Positions 3,700-17,253 are shown, counted from the stretch's first letter. The stretch: DNA of 64,000 nucleotides from an uncultured Thermoplasmatales archaeon (GCA_964638155.1 CAZWYI010000006.1:5949-69948); one strand, 5' to 3'. Translations and numbers: made by a program. The notes: generated by a model from the letters alone, not told the origin.

Positions 3700-3705
3700 T
3701 ATCTA

Positions 3706-4339: not shown

Positions 4340-4768
4340 TCATTCAATGATTTTGTAAGAATAATCAATTTTTACTCCTGCTTTTGATAGCATAGCAGCA
4401 ACTGGACAGTATTTATTCTGCGAGAGTTCAATTGCTTTTTTTACTTGTTTTTTACTTATTTTTCCATAGAAAATATATTCTAGATTTATTTTTGTAAAAA
4501 CCTTCGGATGTTCTTTTTGTTTTTCTCCTATAATATTTATTTCCATTTTTTCATATTCTGCACGTTTTTTCTTTAATATAGATGCAACGTCACTTCCGGT
4601 ACAACTACCAAGTGAAATTAAAATAAGTTCCATAGGTCGAGAAGCTGCTTCAGCGCCTCCAAATTTTTCTGGGCCATCTATTGTTATCCAGTGATTAGTG
4701 TCTCCTTTTCCTACAAATGTTAAGCCTTCAACTTGTTTGATTTTTACTTCCATGAAAGATTGAAACAA
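4340..4768 (-). CDS. OsmC/Ohr family peroxiredoxin-like protein
   Basis: 142 aa; conserved Cys pair (GSCTGSD … KYCPVAAML), as in OsmC. Confidence 0.75.
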   Translation of the reverse strand: MFQSFMEVKIKQVEGLTFVGKGDTNHWITIDGPEKFGGAEAASRPMELILISLGSCTGSDVASILKKKRAEYEKMEINIIGEKQKEHPKVFTKINLEYIFYGKISKKQVKKAIELSQNKYCPVAAMLSKAGVKIDYSYKIIE

Positions 4769-4774
4769 TAAAAC

Positions 4775-5425
4775 CTATATTTCAATCTTTCTTCCTACTC
4801 CGCCTGAGATAAAAGATTCTGAATATAGTTTTTTAATTTCTTTTATATGTTTTGTACAATGTGTAGGACATATTAGTTCCATATTTTTTAAAATAGAAAA
4901 TTCATTAAAACCATGAAGTCCTCCAATTATTCCTCTAATCTCTCCATATTCTTTAGCTTTATTTAATATATTTTTTACACCGTTATGTGAGCATCCAGCA
5001 AGGACAAACCAACCGTTTTTTCCTTTTAATATAAGGGATTGTTCATCCACTGGAGTTCCTGGCATTTTGCCAGTTGAATAGATCTTTTCAGAAATCTTGA
5101 TAGGATCCGTAACAGATACAAAAGAATTTTTTTCTGTTTTAGTTTCGTTGAATCTATAGATAGTAGTACCCTTTTTTAGAAAAGCAATAAGACCTTTTAA
5201 TCCGCCGTTATGATCCCCGTGCTCATGAGATATAACAATCTTTGAGATTGTTTTTGGGTCAATCTCAAGGATTTTCATATTATTAGTTAGAATATCACTT
5301 TTACCTCCTGTATCAAACAGTATGGTCTCTTCGTCTGTTTTTATAATACAAGAAAATCCCCAATCTGATTTAAGATTTAGATTTTTGTTATGAACTTTAT
5401 TGTCATATACTATGATCAATTTCAT
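4775..5425 (-). CDS. MBL-fold metallo-hydrolase
   Basis: HEHGDHNGG (HxHxDH zinc-binding motif); 216 aa. Confidence 0.8.
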   Translation of the reverse strand: MKLIIVYDNKVHNKNLNLKSDWGFSCIIKTDEETILFDTGGKSDILTNNMKILEIDPKTISKIVISHEHGDHNGGLKGLIAFLKKGTTIYRFNETKTEKNSFVSVTDPIKISEKIYSTGKMPGTPVDEQSLILKGKNGWFVLAGCSHNGVKNILNKAKEYGEIRGIIGGLHGFNEFSILKNMELICPTHCTKHIKEIKKLYSESFISGGVGRKIEI

Positions 5426-5427
5426 GT

Positions 5428-6138
5428 TTATTCTCCTATATTTTCTATTTTTTTTAAGGCAAATTTAACTGCAGCTTTTGCATGTATATTTATTGTATCA
5501 AAAATTGGAATATCAACATCTTCTTGTTTTATTAATAAAGGAATCTCTGTACATCCTAAAATTATTCCTTGAGCATTTTTTGATATTAGTTTTTCTATTA
5601 TTTTTTTGAATTTTTGTTTTGATTTTTCTTTTATGATTTCGTTGGATAATTCATTAAAAATTATATTTTCTATTAGTTCTTGGTCTTTTTTTTCTGGTAC
5701 TATTACTTCAATATTATATTTTTCTTTTATTCTTTTTTTGATGAAATCTTCGTTCATTGTATATTTTGTTCCGAGAAGCCCCACTTTTTTTAGATTTTTT
5801 TCTTTTATCTTTTCTGCTGTTGCATCTGCTATATGTATAAGAGGAATTTTTATGTTCTCTATTATTTTATCTGCAATTTTATGAGGAGTATTAGCACATA
5901 TTATAAGTAATTCAGCTCCAGAAATTTCTAATATATTTGCAATTTTTATAAAACGCTTTTCAATTTCTTTCCAGTTATTCCAGTTTTTAGTCATAGTTTC
6001 TTCAAAATCAATAGAATAAAGTATGCATTCTGCAGAATGGGTTTTTCCAAGCTTTTCATTTACTTCTTTATTTATTATCTTATAATATTCCTTTGTTGAT
6101 GCCCATGTAGTTCCACCTATCATACCAATTGTTTTCAT
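5428..6138 (-). CDS. aspartate/glutamate racemase family protein
   Basis: 236 aa; MIGGTTWASTKEYY N-terminus and GCTEIPLL catalytic-Cys region typical of Asp racemase. Confidence 0.8.
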   Translation of the reverse strand: MKTIGMIGGTTWASTKEYYKIINKEVNEKLGKTHSAECILYSIDFEETMTKNWNNWKEIEKRFIKIANILEISGAELLIICANTPHKIADKIIENIKIPLIHIADATAEKIKEKNLKKVGLLGTKYTMNEDFIKKRIKEKYNIEVIVPEKKDQELIENIIFNELSNEIIKEKSKQKFKKIIEKLISKNAQGIILGCTEIPLLIKQEDVDIPIFDTINIHAKAAVKFALKKIENIGE

Positions 6139-6203
6139 ATTTATTCTTCCTCAACAGAATTTCTAAAAACTATAATTATTTAAGGTTTCATAAACAATCT
6201 CTT

Positions 6204-6440
6204 TTATTTTGTTTCAAAAGAGTGCTGTTTCATATCAATCATTTTCTTTTTTTCTATTCCAAGAATATTGCCACAAATGCATTTTACCACTTTTTTATCA
6301 TGAATGCTTTCATCTTCAAGAATTCTATTTTTCCATAAATGAATTATTTTTCCTTTGCCAAATTTTATATATCGAAAAACTTTTTTCCCGCATTTGTTAC
6401 ATAAGACATCATATGTTTTTCTTCTCATAATATACATCAA
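6204..6440 (-). CDS. small zinc-ribbon protein (CxxC…CxC), hypothetical
   Basis: 78 aa, basic, with C14/C17 and C54/C56. No other homology recognised. The sense assignment against the overlapping + strand ORFs is uncertain. Confidence 0.4.
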   Translation of the reverse strand: MMYIMRRKTYDVLCNKCGKKVFRYIKFGKGKIIHLWKNRILEDESIHDKKVVKCICGNILGIEKKKMIDMKQHSFETK

Positions 6441-6446
6441 TTGATA

Positions 6447-7361
6447 TTATTCTAATTTAAATAAATCTGTACTAAGATATCTATCGCCCCTATCTGGAAA
6501 AATAGTGACAATTACTCCTTTTTCTGCATTTTTTGCTGTTTCAATTGATGCAAGCATAGCTGCACCACTGCTCATTCCTGCAAAAATCCCTTCATTTTTT
6601 GCAAGTTTTCTTGTCATCTCAAATGCTTTTTCAGATTCTATCATAACTTCTATATCTATATTTGATGGATCATAAATTGATGGGACTATTGCCTCTTCCA
6701 TATTTTTTAACCCCTGGATGTAGTGTCCAGTTACCGGATGAGCACATACGATTTTTACATTTGGATTGCATTCTTTTAAATATTTTCCAACACCCATAAT
6801 TGTTCCAGAGGTTCCAATTGCTGATACAAAATAATCAATTCTACCGCGGGTTTGTTCTAGTATTTCTCCTGCTGTTGTTTCATAGTGTGCAATTTTATTA
6901 TATTTATTTGTAAATTGATCTGTGCAAAAATATTTATCAGGATGTTTTTTGAGAAGTTCATTTACTTTTAAAATAGCTCCATCTGTACCCTTTTCTGCAT
7001 CTGTGAGAATTATATCAGCACCGAATGCCTTAATTGTTTTCCTTCTTTCTTTTGATACCGCACTGCTCATAACTATTGAAACATTGTATCCTTTAATTGA
7101 ACCTATCATGGATAGAGCTATACCAGTATTTCCTGATGTTGCTTCAATAATTGTTTTATCTTTTGTTAGTTTCCCCTCAGATTCAGCTTGCTCTATCATT
7201 TTTAAAGCTATCCTATCTTTAATACTTCCCCCAGGATTATTTCCTTCAAGCTTTGCATAAATTTCAACATTAGGATTAGGATTAAGATTATTTATTTTTA
7301 CAAGAGGAGTATTTCCTATTAAATCAAGAATGTTATTTCCTACATTTTTGTTGTTTATCAT
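6447..7361 (-). CDS. cysK: cysteine synthase / O-acetylserine sulfhydrylase (PLP-dependent)
   Basis: KLEGNNPGGSIKDRIA PLP-lysine motif and a GTSGT-like glycine loop; 304 aa. Confidence 0.85.
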   Translation of the reverse strand: MINNKNVGNNILDLIGNTPLVKINNLNPNPNVEIYAKLEGNNPGGSIKDRIALKMIEQAESEGKLTKDKTIIEATSGNTGIALSMIGSIKGYNVSIVMSSAVSKERRKTIKAFGADIILTDAEKGTDGAILKVNELLKKHPDKYFCTDQFTNKYNKIAHYETTAGEILEQTRGRIDYFVSAIGTSGTIMGVGKYLKECNPNVKIVCAHPVTGHYIQGLKNMEEAIVPSIYDPSNIDIEVMIESEKAFEMTRKLAKNEGIFAGMSSGAAMLASIETAKNAEKGVIVTIFPDRGDRYLSTDLFKLE

Positions 7362-7495
7362 TACTAACCCTCTAAAAATAATTTTTAAAAACTATTTAAT
7401 ACATATGAAAAAAAAGAATTAACAACAGCTACAGATTAGATTGTTCATATGTATCGTTCCAGAAATAAAAATAAAAAATAGGTTCTTAAATTTTT

Positions 7496-7867
7496 TTATA
7501 GATGTTTTTTGATTATTTTTTTTATTTCACCAACAGACTTTGTACCTCTAATATTTGCAATTTCTTTTCCATTTTTAAAAAGGATAAAATTAGGTATACT
7601 CATGACCTTATATTTTTTTGCTATATCTTGATTTTTTTGTGTATTTACTTTTCCAAAAGCAACGTTTCCTTCAAATAATTTAGAGAGTCTTCTCATACGC
7701 GGACTCATTTTTCTACATGGTGCACACCACGGTGCCCAAAAATCTATAAAACACAGAGGATATTTTTCAATAAATTCATAAAAATTTTTTTCATTTAAAT
7801 TTTCAGTGTAGCTAGGCCATTTAATGTTTTCTTTGTTTTTTTCGTCCTTTTTTTTAAAAAATTTCAT
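7496..7867 (-). CDS. trx: thioredoxin
   Basis: WAPWCAPCRKM (WCxPC active site); 123 aa with an N-terminal extension. Confidence 0.85.
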   Translation of the reverse strand: MKFFKKKDEKNKENIKWPSYTENLNEKNFYEFIEKYPLCFIDFWAPWCAPCRKMSPRMRRLSKLFEGNVAFGKVNTQKNQDIAKKYKVMSIPNFILFKNGKEIANIRGTKSVGEIKKIIKKHL

Positions 7868-7871
7868 TTTA

Positions 7872-8222
7872 TCAATTTTTTATTGGTATTAGACAAAGAA
7901 ACTTAAGTATTTTAGATCCAGTATTCACAAACTGATGCCATTCCATAGGTTTTACAAAAAATACATCACCTTTTTTAAAAGGTTTTTTTGTTTCTTTGTT
8001 TCTAGCTTCACCTTTTCCTTGTAAAATAAAAACTTCATGTTCCCAGTCATGCCTGTGAAGTGGTGTATGTCCATCTGGTTTTATTTCGAAAAGACGCATT
8101 GCAAAGTTTTCTGCTCCATCTTTTTTACCTATTAACCATCGCAATTTAGTATCTTTAACTCCTTCTTCAGAAGGAGTATCAAGCTTAACATCTGTATAAT
8201 GTACATGTTTCATAAATAACAC
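7872..8222 (-). CDS. cupin domain protein
   Basis: HRHDWEHEVFILQGKG cupin motif 1; 116 aa. Confidence 0.7.
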   Translation of the reverse strand: MLFMKHVHYTDVKLDTPSEEGVKDTKLRWLIGKKDGAENFAMRLFEIKPDGHTPLHRHDWEHEVFILQGKGEARNKETKKPFKKGDVFFVKPMEWHQFVNTGSKILKFLCLIPIKN

Positions 8223-9137
8223 CTAGATTTTTTCTTTTATTTTATTCCACATATATTTGATTTCTTTTGAAATATTTAAATCAGGATCATATTCAATAAT
8301 ATTTTTTTCTTCGATAAGTGCTTTTGTAATATTAGTATCATATGGTATTTTTCCAACTACTTCTACATTTTTAGTTTTACAATATTTTTCAATTCGTTCA
8401 GAATTTTTTTTATTTATATCATATTTATTGATGCATAATAAAGCAGGTATATCAAAATGGTTTGCAACATCAATTATTCTTTCCATATCACTTATTCCAG
8501 AAAGAGTAGGTTCAGTAACAATTAAAACAAGATCCACACCCGTTATCGCTGAAATTACAGGACAACCTATCCCTGGTGGTCCATCAATTATTATTAAATC
8601 AAGGTTTTTTTCTTCAGCTATTTTTTTTGCATTTTCCCTAACTACTGTTACTAGTTTACCTGATGCTTCTTCAGCAGTTTTTAAAACAGCATGTGCCATA
8701 GGTCCAAAGCGTGATTCAGAAATATATGAAAAACCAGATTCTCGATCAACCATTTTTATTGCATCTACTGGACACACATATTCACATACCCCGCATCCTT
8801 CACATAATGATTTTTTAACAATTATTCTATCATCTATTGCATCAAATCTACAGTTTTCAATGCATTTTTTACATTCAATACATTTATCATTATCTATTTT
8901 AGCTAATTTTAAACCATGAAAACCCATGGTTTTTTTAATTTCAGGTCTTAAAATTAAATGTAGATCTGCTGCATCTACATCACAATCAGCAAAAACAGAA
9001 TTTTCTGCAAGGCTTGCAAAGGCACCTGTAATACTAGTTTTTCCAGTTCCTCCTTTTCCGCTAATTACTGTTAACTCTTTGATTTTTCCACCTCCTCTGT
9101 AATTTTGGAAAAAACTTTTTTGAATTCTTCTTTCCAA
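8223..9137 (-). CDS. MinD/ParA-family P-loop ATPase with an inserted 2x[4Fe-4S] ferredoxin domain
   Basis: ISGKGGTGKT Walker A; CIECKKCIENC and CEGCGVCEYVCP ferredoxin motifs. The 67-nt overlap with the upstream paralogue leaves the true start uncertain. Confidence 0.8.
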   Translation of the reverse strand: MERRIQKSFFQNYRGGGKIKELTVISGKGGTGKTSITGAFASLAENSVFADCDVDAADLHLILRPEIKKTMGFHGLKLAKIDNDKCIECKKCIENCRFDAIDDRIIVKKSLCEGCGVCEYVCPVDAIKMVDRESGFSYISESRFGPMAHAVLKTAEEASGKLVTVVRENAKKIAEEKNLDLIIIDGPPGIGCPVISAITGVDLVLIVTEPTLSGISDMERIIDVANHFDIPALLCINKYDINKKNSERIEKYCKTKNVEVVGKIPYDTNITKALIEEKNIIEYDPDLNISKEIKYMWNKIKEKI

Positions 9138-9916
9138 AAAGAAAGCCTCTTTACAAAAGGAGTTCCATCTGAATAAAGCTCTGCTATTTCTTCACTTTGA
9201 GGAATCTTTAATAGAATTGGGATTTTTTCCTGCTGGCAGTAAATTTCTACTTTGTTGTCACCTACGCCATCCCTGTTTATAATAACACCAAATGGTACAT
9301 TAAGAAGCCTTACTGTTTCTACTGCAATTTTTAAATCATTAAGGCCAAAGGGCGTAGGTTCAGTAACTAAAATACAGTAATCTGATTCTTCAACTGTTTC
9401 AACAAAGGGACAGGCTGCTCCTGGTGGAGCGTCAAGTATTACATTTTTATTTTTATCAATTTTTTTCTTTAATTTTTTTAAAACAGGTATAGCTTGTATT
9501 TCACCAATATTTAAAAAACCTTGATAGAAATCAATATCTTCTTTTTTTCCATGTTCTATTTTACCAATTTTCCTTGTTTTATAATCTATTGCATTTTCTG
9601 GGCAGACTAGTTTGCATCCTCCGCAGGAGTGACACAGCTCATGGAAAACAAGTACATCTTTTTTAATTACAGCAAGTGCATTATATTTACAGAAATTTGA
9701 GCATTTACCACAAAAACTGCATTTTTCTTTGTCTATTTCAGGAATCAAAACATTTACATTTTCAGATTCAAAAATATCTGTTTTTAAAAAAATATTTGAA
9801 TCCGGTTCTTCTACATCGCAGTCTAAAAACTGAACATTATCAATACTTAATGCAAGGTTTGTTGAAACTGTAGTTTTTCCGGTTCCACCTTTTCCACTTG
9901 CAACAGATATTATCAT
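9071..9916 (-). CDS. MinD/ParA-family P-loop ATPase with an inserted 4Fe-4S ferredoxin domain (paralogue)
   Basis: ASGKGGTGKT Walker A; CSFCGKCSNFC and CHSCGGCKLVCP motifs. Confidence 0.8.
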   Translation of the reverse strand: MIISVASGKGGTGKTTVSTNLALSIDNVQFLDCDVEEPDSNIFLKTDIFESENVNVLIPEIDKEKCSFCGKCSNFCKYNALAVIKKDVLVFHELCHSCGGCKLVCPENAIDYKTRKIGKIEHGKKEDIDFYQGFLNIGEIQAIPVLKKLKKKIDKNKNVILDAPPGAACPFVETVEESDYCILVTEPTPFGLNDLKIAVETVRLLNVPFGVIINRDGVGDNKVEIYCQQEKIPILLKIPQSEEIAELYSDGTPFVKRLSFWKEEFKKVFSKITEEVEKSKS

Positions 9917-10776
9917 TTATTCACCTTTAAAATTAGTTTTCCAACTTTTGATTTTATATCGTTAGCAACTAGAGGACATTTTGCAACTAGTAAAAAGAAC
10001 ACTCTTCTGTTTATACTACTTAATCCTTCATAGTTTCCTTGTCCTTTTGAAATAACCATATCAGATTTTTCAAATAGTTCTTTGAACTTATCTGATGCAT
10101 ATTTTGTTACAATACCTGGAGTTGATATTTTTTGTCCTTTATCATATGTTATAACATCTGCAATTTTATCTATTCCCGCGTATTTTGCATCATCAACGAG
10201 TACATCATTTATTATAGGATTTTCTTTTACAACATAAGTTATTTTTTTACCTCTTTTTTTTAGTTCTTCTAATAAAAGTCTATCAAAAAATATTTCACCA
10301 GAGTTATCTGCTAGATATAAAATGTCATTTGATTTATCTAATTCTTTTTTAAAAAGAGGATAGTCTCTATCGTCAAATTCACGTTCAAGTGCGTGGGAAA
10401 TCATCTCATCGACATTAAACCTGTTCATTGTTCCAAAATCAATTACATTTCCAACAATTGCAAGTTTAATTGATGTTATCAAAGGATCATCTGATTCTTC
10501 AATTTTTTCTTTTAAATGGTCAAAGATTTTTTTAACCATTTCGTTTGATTCGTTTTTTACTTTTTTATAGGGATCATTGTTTTTTGTAATGGTTCTAATA
10601 ATTCTATGTACTTCTCTAGATAATTCTGGAGGAGATTTTTCAAAATTAATATTTTGTAAGTGCTTAAGCACCTCTTTCATGACATATGTATGTATTTCTG
10701 TATCGTCTGTTGCCATCCTTGCTGCTTCAAGAGATTGCTTTAAAAAACATGGTATACAATCTAGATGTACTTTCAT
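9913..10776 (-). CDS. DUF89 (ARMT1-like) family damage-control phosphatase
   Basis: N-terminal CIPCFLKQ and a LADNSGEIFFD motif (the DNAGE-like metal site of DUF89); 287 aa. Confidence 0.7.
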   Translation of the reverse strand: MKVHLDCIPCFLKQSLEAARMATDDTEIHTYVMKEVLKHLQNINFEKSPPELSREVHRIIRTITKNNDPYKKVKNESNEMVKKIFDHLKEKIEESDDPLITSIKLAIVGNVIDFGTMNRFNVDEMISHALEREFDDRDYPLFKKELDKSNDILYLADNSGEIFFDRLLLEELKKRGKKITYVVKENPIINDVLVDDAKYAGIDKIADVITYDKGQKISTPGIVTKYASDKFKELFEKSDMVISKGQGNYEGLSSINRRVFFLLVAKCPLVANDIKSKVGKLILKVNK

Positions 10777-10791
10777 TTAAATTCACTTTTT

Positions 10792-11178
10792 TTAAAAATG
10801 TTTATGTTTTCCCTGTCCTCGGAAGGCGTGCTCTTGACATGCATCTCCTTCGTTTGCTTTTTTTAATTCTTCATTTTTATATGCATCTATTGCATCTTTT
10901 ACTGTTCCTTTTGCTCCAATATATACAGTTATTCCAAAATCAGAAAACATGCCGATTGCTTTTCTACCTAGGCCACTGCAGAGCATTACATTTACTCCTT
11001 CTTTAGTTAGAAGTTCAGGTGGATATCCTCTTCCGCCCATGTGATGGCTGTCATTTGAAATCACTTTTACATCATTTTTATCAAGATCAACAATTGTATA
11101 AGTTGGAACTCTTCCGAAATGTTCTCCTACTGTTTCATCAAGTCCTCTATTTCCATTTGTTGGTATACATACTTTCAT
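10792..11178 (-). CDS. NifX/NafY-like dinitrogenase FeMo-cofactor-binding domain protein
   Basis: 128 aa; MKVCIPTNG…GEHFGR…TIVDLD pattern of the Nitro_FeMo-Co fold. Confidence 0.7.
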   Translation of the reverse strand: MKVCIPTNGNRGLDETVGEHFGRVPTYTIVDLDKNDVKVISNDSHHMGGRGYPPELLTKEGVNVMLCSGLGRKAIGMFSDFGITVYIGAKGTVKDAIDAYKNEELKKANEGDACQEHAFRGQGKHKHF

Positions 11179-11183
11179 AATTT

Positions 11184-11549
11184 TTACCTCATTCCATGAT
11201 GGCTTCCTACATTAGGATTTTCTGTTTCATTTAAATCTCCTTTTTTGTAGCTTTCGATAGCCTCTTTTATAGAACCTCTTGCACCAGTAAAAATCTTCAT
11301 TCCGCCTGCAACAAGAGTTCTGTGTGCGTTTGGCCCGATGTTTCCTGTGATTAGTACTTCTGCTCCGTTGTTTACAACTGTTTCAGCAGCTTTAATCCCT
11401 GCTCCTCCTGTGGCCATACTACTTTCATTTGAAATTACATTAAAATCCATATTTTCAGAATCAACTATTAAAAAATATTTACAGCGTCCAAAACGCTGGT
11501 CAACTTCTGCATTTAAATCTTTATCTGTTGATGATACTGCAATTTTCAT
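11184..11549 (-). CDS. NifX/NafY-like FeMo-cofactor-binding domain protein (paralogue)
   Basis: 121 aa; MKIAVSS…VDQRFGRCKYFLIVD…. Confidence 0.7.
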   Translation of the reverse strand: MKIAVSSTDKDLNAEVDQRFGRCKYFLIVDSENMDFNVISNESSMATGGAGIKAAETVVNNGAEVLITGNIGPNAHRTLVAGGMKIFTGARGSIKEAIESYKKGDLNETENPNVGSHHGMR

Positions 11550-11606
11550 AATTATTCCTCCCTTGTTTTTCTCAAATATTAAGTGGTGTTAATAACTCTT
11601 TGTATT

Positions 11607-11819
11607 TTATGCGCGAGTCATGGGCTGACCGCACTTGGGGCATTTTCTGTTAAAACAAGGTACCGATCTTTGATGCGGCTCACGGTGTCCACAATTAGGG
11701 CAATAACATTTGCCTTCAGGGCCAAGACCATAACCTGGTCCTCTACCACGGTCTCTTCCTTGACCTCGACCTGCTACTGGACCAGTACCATCTGGTCCTG
11801 TACCATTTCCACCTGGCAT
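11607..11819 (-). CDS. DUF5320-like small Gly/Arg-rich protein with a C-terminal zinc ribbon
   Basis: MPGGNGTGPDGTGPVAGRGQGRDRG… then CYCPNCG…CPKCG. I moved the start to the MPGG ATG at 11819 because a 27-nt context is identical to the paralogue at 13032. Confidence 0.65.
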   Translation of the reverse strand: MPGGNGTGPDGTGPVAGRGQGRDRGRGPGYGLGPEGKCYCPNCGHREPHQRSVPCFNRKCPKCGQPMTRA

Positions 11820-11820
11820 C

Positions 11821-12627
11821 TTATTTTTCACCTCCCACAATTTTTTCTACATTTTCAACAAAATCGATATAGTTTTTTTCGGTATCTTTATTTTTTATAT
11901 CTATTTTTTTTGCGCTATCTCCTATTTCTACTATATCTGGATCAAGTGGAATTGAACCTAAGAATGGTATTTTAAAATCTTCTGCTGCTTTTTTACCTCC
12001 TCCTGTTTTAAAGATATCTACTTTTTTTCCACAGTGAGGACAGGTAAAACCACTCATGTTTTCAACAATTCCTATTACATTTAATTTTAGCTTTTTAACA
12101 AAATTAATTGATTTACGTACACTTACAAGTGCCACGTCCTGAGGGGTTGTTACAATTATCACTCCATCTACATCTGGAAGTAATTGTGCGATACTTAATG
12201 GTTCATCTCCTGTACCCGGTGGTAAATCAATAATTAAATAATCAAGTTCTCCCCAATCAACTTGTCCGAGAAGTTGTCTTATTGCGCCCATCTTCATAGG
12301 CCCGCGCCAAATAACAGGGGAGTCTTTTCCTGGCAGTAAATATCCCATGGACATTATTTTTAGTCCTTCATTTGTTTTGATTGGTTGGATAAGATTATTT
12401 TTCATTATTCCTTTTTCATCTTCCACACCCATTATTTTTGGAATGCTTGGGCCGTGTATGTCGCTGTCAAGTATTCCTGTTTTGTATCCTTTTTTTGCTA
12501 GATACATTGCAAGGTTTGAAGAGATTGTACTCTTTCCTACTCCTCCTTTTCCACTTAGGACTACTATTTTATGTTTTACTTTCTCTAGATTTTTTTTAAC
12601 ATCTATTTCATCTTTCTTTTTTTTCAT
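11821..12627 (-). CDS. apbC: Mrp/NBP35/ApbC family Fe-S cluster carrier ATPase
   Basis: [18 protein letters not shown] deviant Walker A; C-terminal CPHCGKK; 268 aa. Confidence 0.85.
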
Positions 12628-12675
12628 ATTAAGCCTCTGTATTGTTTATGTGTAAAAATAAAATAAAGATTAATT

Positions 12676-13032
12676 TTATTGTTTTTCTTTTGAAAGAGTG
12701 TTTAGTCTTTCTTTCATGGTCTTTAGGTCTTCTTCTAGTGCTTTTATTGTGTCTTCAAGATATCTTTTTTCTTCATCTTTTGTTGGTTCTGGGGATACTG
12801 ATCTGTATTGTGCTGGTTCGTAGTGTGATTCTGGATAGTAATAGTCTCTATACACTCCTCTTCGGCCAAAGCCTCTACCACGACCGAATCTTCTTCCAAA
12901 GCCGCGTCCGAAGCCACGACCTCTTGGTGTGCCTTTTGTATATCCTGGGCTGTTATATCCACTGCAGTAACCTAAGGCTCTTCCGGTTTTTGGACCATAT
13001 CCTTCTGGACCTGTTCTATCGCCACCTGGCAT
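12676..13032 (-). CDS. DUF5320-like Gly/Arg-rich protein with a C-terminal coiled coil
   Basis: MPGGDRTGPEGYGPKTGRALGYC… then RGRGFGRGFGRRFGRGRGFGRRG (RGG/FGR low-complexity box) and a KALEEDLKTMKERLNTL coiled coil. Start moved from the track's 13080 to the conserved MPGG ATG at 13032, which also removes the overlap with DUF134. Confidence 0.6.
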   Translation of the reverse strand: MPGGDRTGPEGYGPKTGRALGYCSGYNSPGYTKGTPRGRGFGRGFGRRFGRGRGFGRRGVYRDYYYPESHYEPAQYRSVSPEPTKDEEKRYLEDTIKALEEDLKTMKERLNTLSKEKQ

Positions 13033-13033
13033 C

Positions 13034-13372
13034 TTATTTTTCACCTCCTTTGTTTCTTTTGATGAATTCTCCATGCTCAATTTTAATTTGATAATCGTTT
13101 ACTAGGGCGTTTGTTACCTTTTTTCTTGCTTTGTGTAGATCGTTCCATAGTGTTTTTCTTGATACACCCATCATTGCTGCTGCTTCTTCTTGTGTGAGAT
13201 CTTCGAGATCTACTAGTCTTAATGCTTCGATTTCGTAGGTTTTAAGAAGTATTGTTGGTTTTGGTCTTTGGAAGTTTTTATCTTGTGGTGGAGTTGTTTC
13301 ATATGGATAATTTATCCATCTTCTTCCTCGGCAACGCCCTCGACCTCTTTGTCTTCGTCCGCCTCTTGGCAT
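13034..13372 (-). CDS. DUF134 (UPF0251) family sigma-70 region-4-like HTH protein
   Basis: MPRGGRRQRGRGRCRGRR…LVDLEDLTQEEAAAMMGVSRKTLWNDLHKARKKV matches the DUF134 signature. Confidence 0.75.
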   Translation of the reverse strand: MPRGGRRQRGRGRCRGRRWINYPYETTPPQDKNFQRPKPTILLKTYEIEALRLVDLEDLTQEEAAAMMGVSRKTLWNDLHKARKKVTNALVNDYQIKIEHGEFIKRNKGGEK

Positions 13373-13527
13373 GGTTTTTACACCTAATTAATTACTCATA
13401 TGAGAACTATTATATAAATATTTGCTTTTAGAAGGGGCGCTGTCGCATTGTCGACTGGTAAATTCTAATGTCGTATACGGCTGATAATCTATTTTTCACT
13501 TTTTTAGTTAAATTCTCAAAGGAAATG

Positions 13528-16500
13528 TTAGAAAAATTTCCTAACAATTACAGTATCTTCTGCTGGATTACCTGCATAGTCATAAGCAACTGTTTTTATT
13601 GTATGTTTACCAAATGTTTTTTCTTCCCAGTTAAAAACTAAATCACCACTTGTAATATTTGCCTTTAATTTATTGTCAACAAAGATTTTTACATAGTTTA
13701 TTCCTGATATATTATCAAAAGCATCAATTTCTATTTCTATTTCTCCTAATATCAAAGGAATTGGAAATGAAAATAGTTCCTTGTTTCTTAAATAAAATTT
13801 GTTTTCAGGTTTTAAAATTTGAACATTAGGATTAGAGTTATCCTCTCCATAAAAATAATCAGGTTTTATTTCTCTATCATTATTTCCATCTCCATCATCA
13901 TCAAAATAAATTATAGGATCGACTGCCTCACCATCAATATTCATTTTACCTATTGAATTTTCAAATATTGATATGTTATTGTAATAAAGATATGTTCTAT
14001 TACCATCAGATAACTGTTTAGTTGTTGAAAAATTAAAATCTCCATCGCCTGTTCCTTTCATTATAAATTTATATTTACCATTCCCATAAGGAATAGATAT
14101 TTCTTCGATTGTGTGATTCCATTTTGAAGAATTTGTTTCATTTGTTACAAATAGCGGATCAAAAGAATAAGAAACATTTTCAATTTCAAGATCTACCCCA
14201 TTTGTGTTATTTCTACCAACATGGTTACCATATTCATCATATAGGTGTAACTCAACTGGGCATCCTGTGATTTTTGCTTTAAATTTATCTTCAACAAATT
14301 TTTCTTTGTGAACTATGATTTCATCTTGTTTGAATTCTATTATCCTAAAGGCAGTATCAAGTGTGGAATCTGTTATAACATACAAAGGTTTATCATCTTC
14401 GTGTATGGGGAAATTTGTATAACCCGACCAATAATATGTTCCATCCATATCTCGATTGTATACACGATTTTTGTGTGTATGCCCACTAAGAACAATATCT
14501 ACATCATACTTATCGCAAGCATCTAGAAATCTTTCTTTTTCAGATGTAATGCATCCTGCATCCCAAATTCCATCTTCAGTATATCCTCCCCAGTGTTTCC
14601 AGTCTTCATTTTTTCTATAATATATAACTGGGTGATGCATAAATATAATTTTTTTATAATCACTTGTATCTTTATTGTTGTCACTACCATCTAAGTCATC
14701 TAATTCTGATTCTAATAGGTCTACTTGTTCGGGATCAAGACCTGTCCCTACAGGCGGCCACTTTGTTCCAGTGGTAAGTTTTTTATCATATCCTGAATCT
14801 ATAGATATAATACACGTTTTTGTTGTCTCGTCTTTCCAAGATTTATACCACGTTTGATGATCAATATATTCAATGTAATTATCAAGTACATCTGTCCAAG
14901 GTATTGAACCTTTTAAAGGAGAATATATTCGGTGATCATGGTTGCCAGGGCAATGATATATAGGTATCGTAAAATCAGAATTATGAATCCAATTAATATA
15001 CCAATTAGATTTTATTCCGTTAATTAAACTCCTGTATTCTAAATAATTATTTGCACCAATATCTCCTGATCCCCCACAATCAACAACATCTCCTGAGTTA
15101 ATGACAAATGAAGGCGGAATTGCAAAGTTTTTTATTTTCTTTAAAGTTTTATCTAAATTGCTAACACTGTTTTCTTTATCTAGATAAATTGGCCATTCTT
15201 CATGTATAATATGAGTATCAGTGATATGCACAAAATAAAAATTAGCATAAATTCCAGCATATGAACATCTAGATTCTAGTCCATTTTTATCTTTTATTTC
15301 TGCATGGATTTCTTTTTCCCCACCAGAATAAAAAGTCCATTTCAATATTTTATCATCAGCATTCCAACTATCAAAACTAGTATCCCAGTCAAACCATTCA
15401 GTCCAAATAAAACCATCATCGACCGTTCCATTTTGATCCTCATCACTTAGGAATCTTACTTTATCTATATTGTCTGTATAATCATAAATATGGATATCAA
15501 ACTCTAGCCCCATATCAATATTATCTATTTCTTTTCCATCTTTTTCAAGCCTTAAAAAACATTGAGGCATATCTGATAGTTCAAAATATAGATGATCTGA
15601 AAATAAACTCCAGCCATTAGTGTTATGAGAGCGCATATTCCATCTATATTTTTCTCCATATTCCAATATATCGCTGGGTAACTCATTAAAGGATGTTCCG
15701 TATATCTTTCCATCTGTATAATCTTCTTCACTATCATAAACTAAATTTGCTGGACCATAAGGATATTTACTAATATATAATCCATAATAATCAGCATCTG
15801 GCAGATTTTCCCATTGGAATGTAGGTGTATTTTCATATATAATTTCTCCTGGTTCAGAATTATATCCTGGGGAAATAAGTGTTGGTGGATTAGGTGGTTG
15901 ATTACCGCCCATTTTATATTTATAAAAAATATCATAGTCGTTTCCACTTTCATCGTAATCAGTATCATCCTGCCAGGCAACATGTACTATTTCACTACTG
16001 TCCACAAACAAAGAAGGATCCCAACAATATGTGCTTTCTGTGCTTACCAGTTCAGGGGAACTCCAGCTACCCTCAGCCGACTTATGTTTATAAAAAATAT
16101 TAGGGCCACTGCCGCTATCATCATAATCCATGTAATCAGTCCAAACAACATGTACCATGTCACTGCTATCTAAAAACAATGAGGGACAATAACTTGAGCT
16201 TGCGCTTTCCGTGCTTACTACTTGAGTAGTAGTCCAGATGTCATCAGCCGACTTGTATTTGTAAAATATATCATAATCACTACCACTTTCTCCATAAGAT
16301 GCTCCATCTTGCCAGGCAACATGAATCGTGCCGTTGCTTTCTACCGTCGATGAAGGATATTTACTATTACTGGTACTTTCTGTACTTACTACCTCTGTTG
16401 AACTCCAGCTTTCACCCGCTGGCTTGTATTTGTAAAAAATATCATAGTCGCTCTCACTTTCTACATAAGGTGTTTCATCCTGCCAAATAACGTGAATTGT

Positions 16501-17253
16501 GCTACTGCTGTCCACTATCAATGAAGGTTGTGAACTACTTCTTGTACTTTCTGTGCTTACAACTTCTGTTGCACTCCAACCACCGCCAGCTGGCTTGTAT
16601 TTGTAAAAAATGTCAGTATCACTACTGCTTCCACTATAATTAGTAACATCCTGCCAGGCAACATGAATCTTTCCAGCACTGTCCACGGCCAAAGAAGGAC
16701 AATAACTATATCCATTACTTTCTGTACTTACTACCTCTGTTGTACTCCAGCTTCCACCTGCAGACTTATACTTATAATAGATATCAAAGTCATTCCCACT
16801 ATCGCTATAACTAGTCCAATCATCCCATACTACATGAATCGTTCCAGAATTGTCCACAGTCAATGAAGGAGAAGAATAACTATCACTTGTGCTTTCTGTG
16901 CTTACCACTTCAGTTGTACTCCAGCTACCACCTGCAGGTTTGTATTTGTAAAAAATATCAATATCGCTACCGCTATTCCCATATGCCGTTTCATCCCGCC
17001 AGGCAATGTAAACTGTTCCACTGCTATCAACAACCAACGAACTATACTTGCTATCACTGCTGCTTTCTGCGCTTACTAATTCAGTAATATTCCAACCATC
17101 ATTATTTTTTTCTGTGGATAAGGAAACTGGTTTAGCATTTGTGAAGTTCTCTTCAAAGTCTTCATATTTTCTTAAACTTGGCACGAGACTTGCTACAATA
17201 AACAAGACTATAATAAAAAAAGCCAAATATCTGCTTGGTTTTACCTTTTTCAT
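13528..17253 (-). CDS. secreted multidomain protein: signal/TM anchor, 8 tandem ~50-aa BNR/Asp-box-like propeller repeats, FN3-like domain, calcineurin-like metallophosphoesterase, C-terminal Ig/CARDB-like domain
   Basis: N-terminal hydrophobic stretch (LAFFIIVLFIVASLVP). Repeats of the form DxDIFYKYK.AGGSWS.TEVVSTES….PSL.VD..G.IHV.WQD. Metallophosphoesterase motifs HITDTHI, GDVVDCG, GNHDH, FMHHP, GHTH. Confidence 0.8.
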   Translation of the reverse strand: MKKVKPSRYLAFFIIVLFIVASLVPSLRKYEDFEENFTNAKPVSLSTEKNNDGWNITELVSAESSSDSKYSSLVVDSSGTVYIAWRDETAYGNSGSDIDIFYKYKPAGGSWSTTEVVSTESTSDSYSSPSLTVDNSGTIHVVWDDWTSYSDSGNDFDIYYKYKSAGGSWSTTEVVSTESNGYSYCPSLAVDSAGKIHVAWQDVTNYSGSSSDTDIFYKYKPAGGGWSATEVVSTESTRSSSQPSLIVDSSSTIHVIWQDETPYVESESDYDIFYKYKPAGESWSSTEVVSTESTSNSKYPSSTVESNGTIHVAWQDGASYGESGSDYDIFYKYKSADDIWTTTQVVSTESASSSYCPSLFLDSSDMVHVVWTDYMDYDDSGSGPNIFYKHKSAEGSWSSPELVSTESTYCWDPSLFVDSSEIVHVAWQDDTDYDESGNDYDIFYKYKMGGNQPPNPPTLISPGYNSEPGEIIYENTPTFQWENLPDADYYGLYISKYPYGPANLVYDSEEDYTDGKIYGTSFNELPSDILEYGEKYRWNMRSHNTNGWSLFSDHLYFELSDMPQCFLRLEKDGKEIDNIDMGLEFDIHIYDYTDNIDKVRFLSDEDQNGTVDDGFIWTEWFDWDTSFDSWNADDKILKWTFYSGGEKEIHAEIKDKNGLESRCSYAGIYANFYFVHITDTHIIHEEWPIYLDKENSVSNLDKTLKKIKNFAIPPSFVINSGDVVDCGGSGDIGANNYLEYRSLINGIKSNWYINWIHNSDFTIPIYHCPGNHDHRIYSPLKGSIPWTDVLDNYIEYIDHQTWYKSWKDETTKTCIISIDSGYDKKLTTGTKWPPVGTGLDPEQVDLLESELDDLDGSDNNKDTSDYKKIIFMHHPVIYYRKNEDWKHWGGYTEDGIWDAGCITSEKERFLDACDKYDVDIVLSGHTHKNRVYNRDMDGTYYWSGYTNFPIHEDDKPLYVITDSTLDTAFRIIEFKQDEIIVHKEKFVEDKFKAKITGCPVELHLYDEYGNHVGRNNTNGVDLEIENVSYSFDPLFVTNETNSSKWNHTIEEISIPYGNGKYKFIMKGTGDGDFNFSTTKQLSDGNRTYLYYNNISIFENSIGKMNIDGEAVDPIIYFDDDGDGNNDREIKPDYFYGEDNSNPNVQILKPENKFYLRNKELFSFPIPLILGEIEIEIDAFDNISGINYVKIFVDNKLKANITSGDLVFNWEEKTFGKHTIKTVAYDYAGNPAEDTVIVRKFF
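15870..17060. repeat. intragenic tandem repeats (~150 nt unit, ~8 copies) encoding the propeller blades of the 1241-aa protein
   Basis: Recurring nucleotide strings such as gcttgtatttgtaaaaaatatca…ctaccact near 16255, 16425, 16595 and 16940. Confidence 0.6.

Follow-up and report, generated by a model that had tools for sequence, protein, structure and literature searches.

The question raised by positions 7496..13372 of the window (the whole 64,000-nucleotide stretch of DNA analyzed here, from an uncultured Thermoplasmatales archaeon) is whether eleven closely packed genes form one system and, if they do, what this system handles. A preliminary description had proposed Fe-S/metallocofactor trafficking, and this is still the best-supported theme. 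We consider, with moderate confidence, that the locus represents an archaeal gene cluster of the ORP type (orange-protein complex), serving ATP-driven metal-sulfur cluster handling under a DUF134 autorepressor. Its host is probably a member of the Thermoplasmatota, of the Marine Benthic Group D type. The ORP identity is proposed because gene 3 scores best against MrpORP, gene 5 matches the orange protein structure 2wfb, and the MinD-ferredoxin ATPases FdA and FdB share the architecture of Orp3 and Orp4. ORP-type proteins, comprising ATPases and small metal-sulfur-binding proteins, occur across anaerobes. The finding is real, yet the locus is no new kind of system, as the ORP cluster has already been described in sulfate-reducing bacteria. 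The earlier statement that the function of this gene set is unassigned holds only in part: the ORP cluster has a name and some biochemistry, but its physiological function is still called unclear (PMC6345978; PMC8359166).

All eleven open reading frames reported previously were found on the minus strand with unchanged coordinates, and Pfam and NCBIfam profiles uphold the family assignments of ten of them; the exception is gene 4, which had been called DUF5320 and has no Pfam match in the profile search. The junctions are tight or overlapping as claimed, with successive gaps of 1, 48, 1, 57, 5, 15, and -4 nt, an overlap, and gaps of 0-9 and 4 nt, all being at most 57 nt. Nine genes constitute the conserved core, and the cupin and thioredoxin genes that follow are a local add-on, probably co-transcribed with the core here. 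Directly 3' of the thioredoxin stop codon, a T-rich tract (T6, T5; 7462..7480, minus strand) resembles archaeal terminators and may function as one; an additional T8 run is found at 7415, and the 134-nt spacer between the thioredoxin gene and cysK is T-rich. The 48-nt gap after the DUF5320 gene contains a T5 run and an A/T-rich stretch, which could mark a second transcription unit.

Recurrence was assessed in 80 loci (L006-L085) anchored on one ATPase, from 26 archaeal and 54 bacterial genomes, percentages being profile-based counts over the 43 loci with full flanks. In 20-79 of the 80 loci, a partner family is present no more than 6 kb from the anchor, compared with only 0-5 loci for positions beyond 6 kb, which bears out the earlier notion of a recurring neighborhood of strict anaerobes; this recurrence is far beyond chance. 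The anchor ATPase is accompanied by FdB (100%), NifXa (88%), NifXb (86%), DUF5320 (70%), and Mrp (56%), and less commonly by DUF134 (47%), the Cys-rich small protein (42%), NifU (35%), and DUF89 (26%), while cupin and thioredoxin reach 5-7% among related loci. A Thermoplasmatota relative has the same nine-gene order with NifU_N added. Further recurrent neighbors share a metal/Fe-S theme: radical SAM (25 of 80 loci), FmdB-type zinc ribbon (24), DUF364/DUF4213 (11), Fur family (10), DUF1847 (7), and FeoB (6). The radical SAM protein (245 aa) has weak similarity to MoaA and tungsten-cofactor maturases (42-58 bits, under the cut-offs). That the eleven genes are an accidental same-strand run, or several independent units, is extremely improbable. 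The possible signal in the 48-nt gap would fit it, as would the separable cupin and thioredoxin genes, recurring only in close relatives, and the DUF134 and DUF5320 genes, which in other genomes frequently run divergently from the structural genes or lie apart from them. Against this, the nine-gene order is conserved in Thermoplasmatota, partners are strongly enriched near the anchor in two domains of life, components are joined by multiple gene fusions, and the gaps here are short; the comparative data argue against chance grouping of the core genes.

At the head of the cluster, an archaeal TATA-box-like element, TTTATATA (13411..13418, minus strand), precedes the DUF134 start codon by about 40 nt and may serve as the promoter; an A/T-rich box occupies the equivalent position in relatives L002, L006, and L086. 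Between this element and the Shine-Dalgarno site is a perfect palindrome, CTCATATGAG (13395..13404), a candidate DUF134 operator with a single match in the window when one mismatch is allowed. The 16-mer GTTCTCATATGAGTAA upstream of the DUF134 gene is identical in L002-L004 and L006, and the core CTCATATGAG is present in L086 and L088 too. Of 29 DUF134 upstream regions, 12 contain related palindromes with a CATATG core, where 0.016 would be expected per region; a CATATG-centered palindrome at DUF134 gene promoters, spread across phyla, is a new observation. Gene 1 (13034..13372, minus strand) encodes the DUF134/UPF0251 helix-turn-helix protein of 112 aa (PF02001, 70.9 bits; Sigma70_r4_2, 36 bits). 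An extra PF04060 Fe-S domain is present in homologues that are 59-62% identical, and one such fusion (P0142) stands first in the same cluster and has the same operator; the occurrence of this fusion in close relatives is also newly observed. Because the operator position is conserved and relatives are fused to an Fe-S domain, gene 1 is, judging from sequence, a probable autoregulating repressor acting at CTCATATGAG.

Gene 3 (11821..12627, minus strand) encodes an Mrp/NBP35-type Fe-S carrier ATPase of 268 aa (PF10609, 339.5 bits), with a deviant Walker A motif (GKGGVGKS) and a CPHC motif at residues 196-199. It scores 368.6 bits against NF041136 (MrpORP), over model positions 1-242 of 365, and 237 bits against ApbC. 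The MrpORP score falls short of the curated cut-off of 450, as the NifX half is encoded by its own gene in this locus; the C-terminal half of the model is matched by genes 5 and 6. Gene 3 is equated with the P-loop part of MrpORP, separated from the NifX-like part.

The paired ATPases are encoded by gene 8 (FdA; 9071..9916, minus strand; 281 aa), an Orp3/Orp4-like MinD-type ATPase with CbiA/ParA and Fer4 matches, and by its paralog gene 9 (FdB; 8223..9083, minus strand), which has 286 aa from ATC 9083, most likely the true start, or 304 aa from TTG 9137. FdB is 30% identical to FdA and adjoins it in 100% of the loci with full flanks (n=43). A 2x[4Fe-4S] ferredoxin domain is inserted in the MinD-type ATPase of FdA, whose family comprises 757 representative clusters at E<=1e-30, and both proteins have two CX2CX2CX3C motifs. 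The eight ferredoxin Cys of FdA are 100% conserved, and C33 (DCDV) and C169 (DxPPGxxCP) 98% over 83 sequences; C174 of FdB is 99% conserved. The nearly invariant switch II Cys of both proteins follows the Walker B Asp at a distance of seven residues, the spacing found in NifH; this equivalence with NifH Cys132 rests on motif spacing, profile alignment being unreliable there. About 32 of the best 150 representatives appear to be FdA-FdB fusions, counted from the table by a length of about 600 aa and at least two matched stretches; in P0243, alignment confirmed that FdB is fused after FdA. Such natural fusions are a new observation.

The best solved-structure matches of the FdA/FdB ATPase part are archaeal MinD proteins, and the C-terminal segments of both have a top-percentile helical hydrophobic moment, like the membrane-targeting helix of MinD. 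These features would suit the hypothesis put forward for Desulfovibrio, in which the MinD-like ATPases determine where the division site or some other polar structure lies, the remaining proteins maturing their clusters, as would the morphological defects caused by orpR inactivation and the polar localization of MrpORP (PMC6345978; PMC8359166). A positioning role is nevertheless quite unlikely here: recurrent neighbor families in the 80 loci include no division gene and are metal, Fe-S, or regulatory instead, the cluster is unchanged across archaea and bacteria with very different division machineries, and fusions tie the NifX domain to NifU, Mrp, and the ATPases.

Two NifX-like proteins are encoded upstream of the ATPases. 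Gene 5 (11184..11549, minus strand; 121 aa; PF02579, 89.5 bits) belongs to the MTH1175/TM1290/ORP clade (orange protein, IssA-type), with PDB matches to MTH1175 (1eo1, 6.3e-22), 1rdu (3.1e-20), and D. gigas ORP (2wfb, 4e-16). Gene 6 (10792..11178, minus strand; 128 aa; PF02579, 72.5 bits) falls in the TM1816/PH0822 clade, matching 1t3v (1.4e-16), 1o13 (1.9e-16), and 2yx6 (1.3e-14), but ORP only at 1.2e-3; its C-terminal tail contains His/Cys. The orange protein of D. gigas is reported to carry a [S2MoS2CuS2MoS2] cluster (PMC6345978), and it could be hypothesized that the NifX-like proteins sequester Mo(W)-Cu-S while the ATPases drive its assembly or disposal, thereby securing Mo/W homeostasis or detoxifying copper in sulfidic habitats. 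Such thiomolybdate/thiotungstate-copper handling would agree with the homology of gene 5 to the orange protein, with the strong shift of orp genes on copper surfaces in D. alaskensis G20 (PMC10533852), and with the weak similarities of the radical SAM neighbor. It is unlikely, however, as Mod/Tup transporter and molybdopterin families are absent from the recurrent neighbors, where NifU, Fur, and FeoB are present, gene 5 is nearer to MTH1175 (tail-less IssA type) than to ORP, and the G20 genes shift in step with feoA and flavodoxin, a pattern of the iron type (PMC10533852).

Gene 2 (12676..13032, minus strand) encodes a DUF5320 protein of 118 aa (PF17253, 102.8 bits) consisting of an MPGGDxTGP motif, a disordered Gly/Arg/aromatic-rich region, and a C-terminal coiled coil; residues 1-85 have a pI of 10.2, with 24% Gly, 19% Arg+Lys, and 16% aromatic residues. 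Gene 4 (11607..11819, minus strand; 70 aa) has a DUF5320-like N-terminal motif, a Gly/Arg linker, and CxCPxCG...H...PC...CPxCG. It shares only the MPGGxGTGP motif with DUF5320 and is assigned to a separate, widespread Cys6-His family; a few relatives do score with PF17253. Six Cys and one His are invariant in the family alignment (A1), and 38 of the 80 loci encode a member of the family, in most cases immediately upstream of the first ATPase. The AF2 model of the gene 4 protein shows disorder over residues 1-33 and a small beta domain over 34-70 (pLDDT ~78), for which Foldseek listed zinc ribbons and rubredoxins with no significant match. Fusions of Mrp+NifX, NifX+DUF5320, NifX+Cys-small, and NifX+NifU were seen, DUF5320 being fused behind the NifX-type domain in L028, L029, L042, and L057. 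NifX fusions to DUF5320 or the Cys-rich protein, in an IssA-like layout, are a new observation.

Gene 7 (9913..10776, minus strand) encodes a DUF89/ARMT1-type metal-dependent phosphatase of 287 aa (PF01937, 242.7 bits; NCBIfam damage-control phosphatase, 204.5 bits, under the cut-off of 440). Gene 10 (7872..8222, minus strand) is a small cupin of 113-116 aa (Cupin_2, 57.8 bits), probably starting at ATG 8213, and accompanies the cluster in close Thermoplasmatota relatives alone. It is accompanied by gene 11 (7496..7867, minus strand), a thioredoxin of 123 aa with WCAPC (PF00085, 94.7 bits) that passes TIGR01068 (97.9 bits, cut-off 96.8). The cupin-Trx(-MBL) order is also present in L002, where three opposite-strand genes separate it from the core; both genes lie outside the conserved set, as a lineage-specific add-on.

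Hdr, Mvh, Kor, and class I fumarase are indeed encoded elsewhere in the window, and the preliminary description had seen in the locus a delivery or repair module dedicated to them. The presence of hydrogenase maturation genes (HypD, plus HypC in the relative) a few kb downstream, in conserved synteny, is compatible with this proposal. Only 0-4 of the 80 related loci, however, contain homologues of HdrB/C, MvhA/G/D, KorA/B/G, and fumarase, the enzymes are at least 20 kb away and mostly on the opposite strand, and the organisms that have the cluster differ considerably in their sets of Fe-S enzymes, which makes a dedicated module very unlikely.

For the ORP-type cluster, the following sequence of events can be proposed. 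The DUF134 repressor would bind CTCATATGAG, downstream of the TATA box and ahead of the transcription start. The CPHC motif of the Mrp/NBP35 carrier may hold a bridging [4Fe-4S] cluster and load the ferredoxin inserts of FdA and FdB, as [4Fe-4S] clusters are passed in vitro from MrpORP to Orp3/Orp4 of Desulfovibrio (PMC6345978). FdA and FdB probably form an ATP-dependent heterodimer with two [4Fe-4S] clusters per subunit, given their invariable adjacency, natural A-B fusions, and deviant Walker A motif; the two clusters and the NifH-like switch II Cys suggest that ATP is coupled to electron transfer or cluster release. Both NifX-like proteins would carry a non-covalently bound inorganic metal-sulfide cluster, the precedents in relatives being Mo-Cu-S in ORP and thioferrate in IssA. 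From natural fusions and IssA architecture, DUF5320 and the Cys6-His protein could be detached cationic Gly/Arg-rich "tails" of the NifX domain, adding a coiled coil for oligomerization and a metal site, respectively. Overall, the system would assemble, store, or pass on Fe-S or related metal-sulfide units in a reducing environment. Counting against this reading, the orange protein binds Mo and Cu rather than Fe in its isolated form, and the Desulfovibrio authors favor a link with cell division.

Several known systems share parts with this locus. Nitrogenase cofactor maturation (NifU, NifH, NifB/NifX/NafY) has like parts in the NifU_N scaffold (35% of loci), NifX-family carriers, small radical SAM neighbor (25/80 loci), deviant-Walker-A ATPases, and switch II Cys at NifH Cys132 spacing. 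In contrast, no nitrogenase is encoded among the scanned ORFs of at least 110 aa in the window, as noted before, NifEN is also absent, and FdA/FdB, MinD-like and not NifH-like in sequence, have inserted ferredoxin domains instead of the Cys97 loop. With MinD/ParA positioning ATPases, they share the P-loop fold, the signature lysine of the deviant Walker A motif, and the C-terminal amphipathic segment; they differ by the inserted ferredoxin domain (~60 residues, eight invariant Cys), by a Cys in place of the acidic switch II residue, and by a locus with no MinC/MinE or division genes nearby. Gene 3 shares GKGGVGKS and the family-defining CXXC (CPHC) with Mrp/NBP35/ApbC carriers, including eukaryotic Nbp35-Cfd1, and lacks the N-terminal Cys cluster of Nbp35 and MrpORP as well as the fused NifX-like domain of MrpORP. 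Gene 5 is in the same IPR003731 clade as MTH1175, which is of the IssA type but tail-less; IssA itself stores iron-sulfur as thioferrate nanoparticles in Pyrococcus furiosus. Electrostatic binding of thioferrate by the IssA tail has been proposed (PMC5524996), and the tail is described as having the Gly/Arg/aromatic-rich cationic composition seen in DUF5320; the available portion of the IssA account has no mention of MinD-ferredoxin ATPases. DUF5320 is fused behind NifX in other genomes, IssA-like, whereas here the tail-like protein is a separate polypeptide with its own conserved N-terminal motif and coiled coil.

The closest likeness is with the ORP cluster of D. vulgaris Hildenborough (DVU2103-DVU2109), D. 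alaskensis G20, and D. gigas. Five proteins of the D. vulgaris/D. alaskensis cluster are reported in one complex (PMC6345978; PMC8359166), and orp expression is limited to low redox potential, being switched off as the potential rises (PMC8359166). MrpORP corresponds here to an Mrp gene and free NifX-like genes, one putative operon replaces two divergent sigma-54 operons, a DUF134 gene and conserved palindrome stand at the head instead of an OrpR activator, DUF89, cupin, and thioredoxin are extra, and the host is an archaeon. Equivalences with Orp3/4/5/7 (DVU2103-2109, Dde_3197-3202) rest on architecture and gene position, not alignment, and on position only for the small proteins as Orp5/Orp7. 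Shared with Desulfovibrio are the paired paralogous MinD-type ATPases with two [4Fe-4S] motifs each, a NifX-like protein of the MTH1175/ORP type, an Mrp/NBP35 carrier that best fits the MrpORP model, small accessory proteins whose genes lie immediately upstream, and hosts from anaerobic lineages.

The eleven-gene run given in the preliminary description is borne out, with small corrections, by open reading frame positions, family matches, intergenic gaps and the lack of a nitrogenase: all eleven frames were found on the minus strand, from 13372 down to 7496, and the window's frames of at least 110 aa that were scanned include no nitrogenase. Gene 1, at the upstream end, encodes a DUF134 protein (PF02001, 70.9 bits) with a helix-turn-helix like sigma-70 region 4 according to Pfam, and is followed by a DUF5320 protein (gene 2; PF17253, 102.8 bits, passing the Pfam gathering score of 27) and an Mrp/NBP35 ATPase (gene 3; PF10609, 339.5 bits in Pfam). 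Genes 5 and 6 encode Nitro_FeMo-Co proteins (Pfam PF02579). Gene 7 has a DUF89/ARMT1 phosphatase-type domain (Pfam PF01937, 242.7 bits, above its cut-off), and its scores against NCBIfam equivalogs, 204.5 and 188.7 bits, lie under the cut-offs of 440 and 500. Genes 8 and 9 (FdA and FdB) are CbiA/ParA ATPases with two CX2CX2CX3C motifs apiece and 30% mutual identity, gene 10 is annotated by Pfam/NCBIfam as a small cupin, and gene 11 is a thioredoxin (TIGR01068, 97.9 bits, cut-off 96.8) with the active site WCAPC in its translation. The junctions are indeed tight or overlapping (gaps of 1, 48, 1, 57, 5, 15 and -4 nt, an overlap, then 0-9 and 4 nt), except that the start proposed for the second ATPase at 9137 most probably does not hold, the position at which its orthologues start being an ATC at 9083. 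Between the thioredoxin stop and the cysK/M gene lies a 134-nt spacer with T6, T5 and T8 runs. An Rfam scan of the window gave zero matches, and a scan of the window for sigma-70 promoters and intrinsic terminators, with bacterial models that are not applicable to an archaeon, gave the same counts as shuffles.

The second ATPase has no canonical start where orthologues have ATG or GTG (9071-9137 on the minus strand of the window; 6872-6890 in the related locus L006), and the position occupied by ATC in the window is ATA in the closest relative. It lies 5 nt past a GGAGGTG Shine-Dalgarno site and overlaps the end of the upstream gene, while in L006 zero in-frame ATG, GTG or TTG codons precede the P-loop. 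The missing start codon suggests non-AUG initiation, or reinitiation via translational coupling. One gene caller cut this protein to 234 aa without the P-loop.

In NCBIfam, gene 3 matches MrpORP best (NF041136; 368.6 bits, E 3.9e-110), with ApbC at only 237 bits. Gene 3 spans only positions 1-242 of the 365 in this model and scores below its cut-off of 450, so that it is not a two-domain MrpORP; genes 5 and 6, encoded separately, match the Di-Nase half of the model, and fused forms of the MrpORP type occur in three of the related loci. The deviant Walker A motif GKGGVGKS (residues 26-33) and the CPHC motif (196-199) of Mrp/NBP35/ApbC proteins are both present. Gene 5 has PDB matches to MTH1175 (6.3e-22), TM1290 and the orange protein (ORP) of D. 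gigas (2wfb, 4e-16, residues 2-113), and gene 6 matches the TM1816/PH0822 branch of NifX-like proteins. In D. vulgaris, the ORP complex contains Orp3 and Orp4, which are paralogues with two [4Fe-4S] motifs each, together with Orp5, the orange protein itself (Orp8) and MrpORP (Orp9) (Pardoux et al., PMC6345978). The orange protein is reported to bear a Mo-Cu-S cluster. Judged from the MrpORP match, the homologies of genes 5 and 6 and this described composition, the window cluster is an archaeal ORP-type cluster in which MrpORP is split, with one predicted operon and without a sigma-54 regulator.

A wider survey, with an alignment of both ATPases and their orthologues (A2) as query against one genome per GTDB species, returned at least 513 ATPase relatives. 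The best 80 of these, with identities of 46-83%, are loci of 26 archaeal and 54 bacterial genomes; archaeal hosts include Bathyarchaeia, Methanosarcina, Methanothrix, ANME-1 and Thorarchaeota, and bacterial hosts include Dehalococcoidia, Desulfobacterota, Omnitrophota, Ignavibacteria, Planctomycetota and Clostridia. Most named homologues of genes 1 and 4 come from Thermoplasmatota, including one Marine Benthic Group D single-cell genome, with zero Desulfovibrio entries among the matches listed. The closest locus belongs to an uncultured Thermoplasmatales genome (FdA 83% identical). Another Thermoplasmatota relative, L002, has the identical order from DUF134 to the second ATPase, then a NifU_N scaffold gene, three opposite-strand genes, and cupin, thioredoxin and metallo-beta-lactamase (MBL)-fold genes.

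Six-frame open reading frames of the 80 loci were compared with the window proteins by phmmer and then by two family-profile rounds, and frequencies were counted for a range of 6 kb around FdA, using the 43 loci that reach at least 4 kb to either side. FdB was found in 100% of these loci, NifXa and NifXb (the types of genes 5 and 6) in 88% and 86%, DUF5320 in 70%, Mrp in 56%, DUF134 in 47%, the Cys-rich small protein in 42%, NifU_N in 35%, an MBL fold in 30%, DUF89 in 26%, thioredoxin in 7%, and cupin and CysK in 5% each; the same families lay more than 6 kb from FdA in 0-5 loci only. The recurrence anticipated in the preliminary description is thus seen in archaea and bacteria alike, and chance adjacency of the genes is highly improbable. 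It extends to nine of the eleven genes, which form a conserved set, while the low frequencies of cupin and thioredoxin mark these two as a local add-on. Unbiased clustering of all remaining open reading frames near the FdA anchors of the 80 loci gave further recurrent neighbours: a 245-aa radical SAM protein (25 loci), an FmdB-type zinc ribbon with a Cys-rich tail (24), a class I methyltransferase (15), DUF364/DUF4213 'heavy-metal chelation' proteins (11), Fur-family regulators (10), a third NifX type (10), a DnaJ-domain protein with a Gly/Arg/Cys tail (8), DUF1847 (7) and FeoB (6). A role of these MinD-type ATPases in cell-division positioning is improbable, as zero cell-division families are found among the recurrent neighbours of the 80 loci. 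The window also encodes Hdr, Mvh, Kor, fumarase, succinyl-CoA ligase and other genes, and dedicated service to the first four of these enzymes had been proposed; however, their homologues accompany only 0-4 of the 80 related loci, and such service is scarcely to be expected.

Several features of the surrounding DNA were also recorded. Downstream of the cluster lies a block of stress and maturation genes (730-7361, mostly minus strand) with a cysteine synthase (6447-7361), a 78-aa open reading frame containing Cys and with no Pfam match (6204-6440), an Asp/Glu racemase, an MBL-fold protein (4775-5425), OsmC (4340-4768), an HTH_24 regulator, a 513-aa radical SAM protein with an N-terminal zinc ribbon (2158-3699) and HypD (730-1821); L002 (15101-19510) keeps the order cupin-Trx-MBL-radical SAM-HypC-HypD. 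Directly upstream, a 1241-aa protein (13528-17253, minus strand) contains about seven repeats that end in D(I/F)(F/Y)YKYK, with BNR-like matches, and then a calcineurin-like metallophosphoesterase domain; it is missing at this position in L002, which otherwise keeps synteny in the flanking peptidase M32 and Exo_endo_phos genes. Two giant open reading frames are found on the plus strand, of 2977 aa (20292-29225), in the window's highest G+C stretch (0.36-0.41) and with the strongest GC skew (+0.41), and of 1576 aa (50981-55711). The Hdr/Mvh block (38073-50984) also contains a GlcD-like FAD oxidase, an HdrD-like CCG protein, a lipoate-protein ligase and a second HdrC/HdrB pair, and these companions, along with a LarA-type lactate racemase homologue at 61012-62268, suggest lactate- or glycolate-linked electron bifurcation of the heterodisulfide-reductase type in a non-methanogen.

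In the two ATPases, the eight ferredoxin Cys residues are invariant in 83 FdA and 76 FdB sequences, the Cys of switch I (DCDV) is present in 98% and 80% of them, respectively, and a Cys at position +7 from the Walker B Asp, in DxPPGxxCP, in 98% and 99%. The Asp-to-Cys spacing is that of Asp125-Cys132 in Azotobacter NifH, whose sequence was verified against the PDB. Equivalence with NifH Cys132 would hold at the motif level only, because profile alignment left the region unresolved (hhalign probability of 4% for FdA, with a meaningless middle region, and of 96.8% for FdB, with the same region unreliable). Both proteins also have strongly amphipathic C-terminal segments. Among the 757 representative clusters of the family at E<=1e-30, about 32 of the best 150 representatives, as counted from the results table, are 580-710 aa long with at least two matched stretches. 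One of them, P0243, is FdA-like over residues 2-275 and aligns with 49% identity to FdB over residues 290-590. These fusions, together with invariable adjacency, support an FdA-FdB heterodimer.

The small proteins of the cluster required a revision. Gene 4 had been described as a second DUF5320 protein with a Zn-ribbon, but it matches no Pfam family at E<=0.01, and only its N-terminal motif is common to gene 2. The 70-aa product belongs to a family without a Pfam model, of which 3 of 92 relatives have precomputed PF17253 matches, and which follows the pattern MP(R/G)GDGTGP, a Gly/Arg-rich linker and CxCPxCG-x4-H-x4-PC-x4-CPxCG, with six Cys and one His invariant (Cys6-His). In its AlphaFold model, residues 1-33 are disordered and the remainder forms a small beta domain, for which Foldseek listed zinc ribbons and rubredoxins, none of them significant. 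A 21-nt exact repeat, GGAGGTGAAAAATAAGATGCC, occurs on the minus strand at 13048-13028 and 11835-11815, which are the junctions from DUF134 to DUF5320 and from Mrp to the Cys-rich small protein, and covers the Shine-Dalgarno site, the stop codon of the upstream gene and the ATG. In pairwise alignment the repeat extends to 27 exact nt, with about 75% identity onward through the MPGGxGTGP coding region. Genes 2 and 4 have a duplicated 5' module in common, ribosome-binding site included.

Residues 1-85 of gene 2 (pI 10.2; 24% Gly, 19% Arg+Lys, 16% aromatic) precede a coiled coil. The study of IssA, the iron-sulfur storage protein of Pyrococcus furiosus, describes a NifX-type domain with a cationic tail rich in Gly and aromatics, proposes that this tail wraps anionic thioferrate, and names MTH1175 as a tail-less IssA-type protein (Vaccaro et al., PMC5524996). 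Gene 5 is placed in the IssA/MTH1175 clade of IPR003731 by its best solved relative, MTH1175; unlike IssA, it has no tail on the same polypeptide (it ends in ...SHHGMR), and a composition like that of the tail occurs in gene 2, a separate protein. Single open reading frames combine a gene-5-type domain, a Gly/Arg-rich linker and a DUF5320 coiled coil in four loci (L028, L029, L042 and L057), or a gene-5-type domain and the Cys6-His module in L061, and Mrp+NifX, NifX+NifX and NifX+NifU fusions also occur in the fetched loci. The DUF5320 and Cys6-His proteins may accordingly be read as detachable tails of the ORP/IssA-type domain. A full-text literature search on DUF5320, DUF134 and COG1149 found nothing relevant. 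Gly/Arg-rich segments with Cys are also seen on unrelated cluster-adjacent proteins (L069 1563-2063; L064 10084-10392; L081 2791-3192), as at the N-terminus of a Fur-family regulator (MPRGHGHGRGCGPRGWRG), the C-terminus of a DnaJ-domain protein (GWGCGRGRGGGGRCRRW) and the C-terminus of a NifX-like protein (CCGRRRRRRGC), and the window DUF134 protein likewise starts with MPRGGRRQRGRGRCRGRRW. They may represent a common binding or docking motif.

Upstream of DUF134, a TTTATATA box (13418-13411, minus strand) is followed by a perfect palindrome, CTCATATGAG (13404-13395), and an AGGTG Shine-Dalgarno site. The 16-mer GTTCTCATATGAGTAA has the same position before the DUF134 gene in L002-L004 and L006, and the core CTCATATGAG also precedes DUF134 in L086/L088. 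In Zixibacteria, Ignavibacteria and several Chloroflexota, a palindrome of 14-16 bp, ATGAGCATA(T/C)GCTCAT or a close variant, lies past the -10 box of DUF134 genes, ATGAGCATATGCTCAT being the bacterial candidate site for DUF134 homologues; a Nitrososphaeria locus has TGTGCATATGCACA beside a TATA box, and several other TGAGC-type sites lie upstream of the cluster's first gene. Sites between TATA box and transcription start, or just past a -10 box, are typical of repressors. Of 29 DUF134 upstream regions, 12 hold a 14-bp palindrome with a CATATG-like core, while the background density (67 sites in 1.15 Mb) corresponds to 0.016 per region; there is kinship between these loci, yet they span at least five phyla. 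Within the window alone, its count shows no significant excess (1 site, with 1.9 expected when one mismatch is allowed), so the palindrome draws its weight from cross-locus conservation only. Two Thermoplasmatota DUF134 proteins, P0133 and P0142, which are 59-62% identical to that of the window, have a PF04060 'FeS' domain (CGxCGYxTCxEC...C) at the C-terminus, and one of these two DUF134-FeS genes (L086 140-688) is the first of the same cluster, behind the palindrome CTCATATGAG. In 7 of 54 bacterial loci, the cluster has open reading frames with sigma-54-activator motifs beside it, and 6 of these 7 loci are without DUF134. The conserved palindrome, its repressor-like position, the Fe-S-domain fusions and the sigma-54 frames where DUF134 is missing point to DUF134 as the likely regulator specific to the cluster in most lineages, with a possible response to Fe-S or redox status.

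Altogether, the window cluster probably, though by no means surely, encodes an ATP-driven system for handling metal-sulfur clusters, in which Mrp would load the FdA/FdB pair, the NifX-like proteins and tails would hold an inorganic cluster, and DUF134 would repress the operon. A broader proposal is possible but doubtful: the ORP-type cluster would be a near-universal anaerobe store and mobiliser of inorganic iron-sulfide (thioferrate-like) or related metal-sulfide units, with NifX-like proteins and detached, cationic IssA-like tails (DUF5320 and the Cys6-His protein) holding an anionic mineral or cluster, FdA/FdB loading or releasing it with ATP and low-potential electrons, and DUF134 acting on the CATATG palindrome as a hitherto uncharacterised Fe-S- or redox-responsive repressor from Thermoplasmatota to Chloroflexota and Ignavibacteria. 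A Mo/W-Cu thiometallate role is unlikely. The question bears on how strict anaerobes build, store and deliver a very large load of Fe-S and metal-sulfur cofactors, the ORP cluster being among the few conserved 'anaerobe-only' gene sets. The window itself adds one more member, from an uncultured archaeon, and the handles come from comparison: DUF134 gains a candidate operator and Fe-S-domain-fused relatives, and through fusions DUF5320 is linked to the NifX domain in the manner of IssA, and the two ATPases to each other as a heterodimer. As far as could be found, the candidate operator and the DUF134-FeS, IssA-like and FdA-FdB fusions are without earlier description in the literature.

In Desulfovibrio, the MrpORP cluster is passed to Orp3/Orp4 in vitro (PMC6345978), and the two orp operons, which are the sole targets of the sigma-54 activator OrpR, are on at low redox potential only (Fievet et al., PMC8359166). 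The function of the Orp proteins is termed 'still unclear' in the same study, which repeats an earlier suggestion of an archaeal origin of the system. Genes 8 and 9 are likened to Orp3/Orp4, as paired MinD-type ATPases with two [4Fe-4S] motifs, by architecture and gene position, and gene 5 is an Orp8-type (MTH1175-like) Nitro_FeMo-Co protein. Since the D. vulgaris gene orders are orp5-orp4-orp3 and orp7-orp8-orp9 (PMC8359166), and the orders 5320-NifXa and Cys-FdA-FdB are seen in many bacterial loci, gene position alone would pair Orp7 with DUF5320 and Orp5 with the Cys6-His protein. Gene 4 was at first equated with Orp5/Dde_3197, and this was downgraded because one study gives a protein annotated as FeMo-co as the closest homologue of Dde_3197 (PMC10533852); a fusion of NifX and the Cys-rich small protein, as in L061, could reconcile the two. 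In NifH-like reductases, Cys97 and Cys132 of each subunit hold an inter-subunit [4Fe-4S] cluster; FdA/FdB have the deviant Walker A and a Cys spaced as Cys132, and the ferredoxin insert stands in place of the Cys97 loop. MrpORP is fused in Desulfovibrio, whereas here an Mrp gene is accompanied by free NifX-like genes; sigma-54 promoters and OrpR are replaced by an archaeal TATA box and a DUF134 gene; and DUF89, cupin and thioredoxin are extra. Across two domains, the commonest form of the cluster has DUF134, DUF5320 and the Cys6-His protein, in contrast to Desulfovibrio, where the regulator studied is of the sigma-54 type. As a kind, the system is already known and named as ORP, and the present instance is a variant of it: archaeal, with a split MrpORP, DUF134 replacing OrpR, and additional DUF89, cupin and thioredoxin genes.
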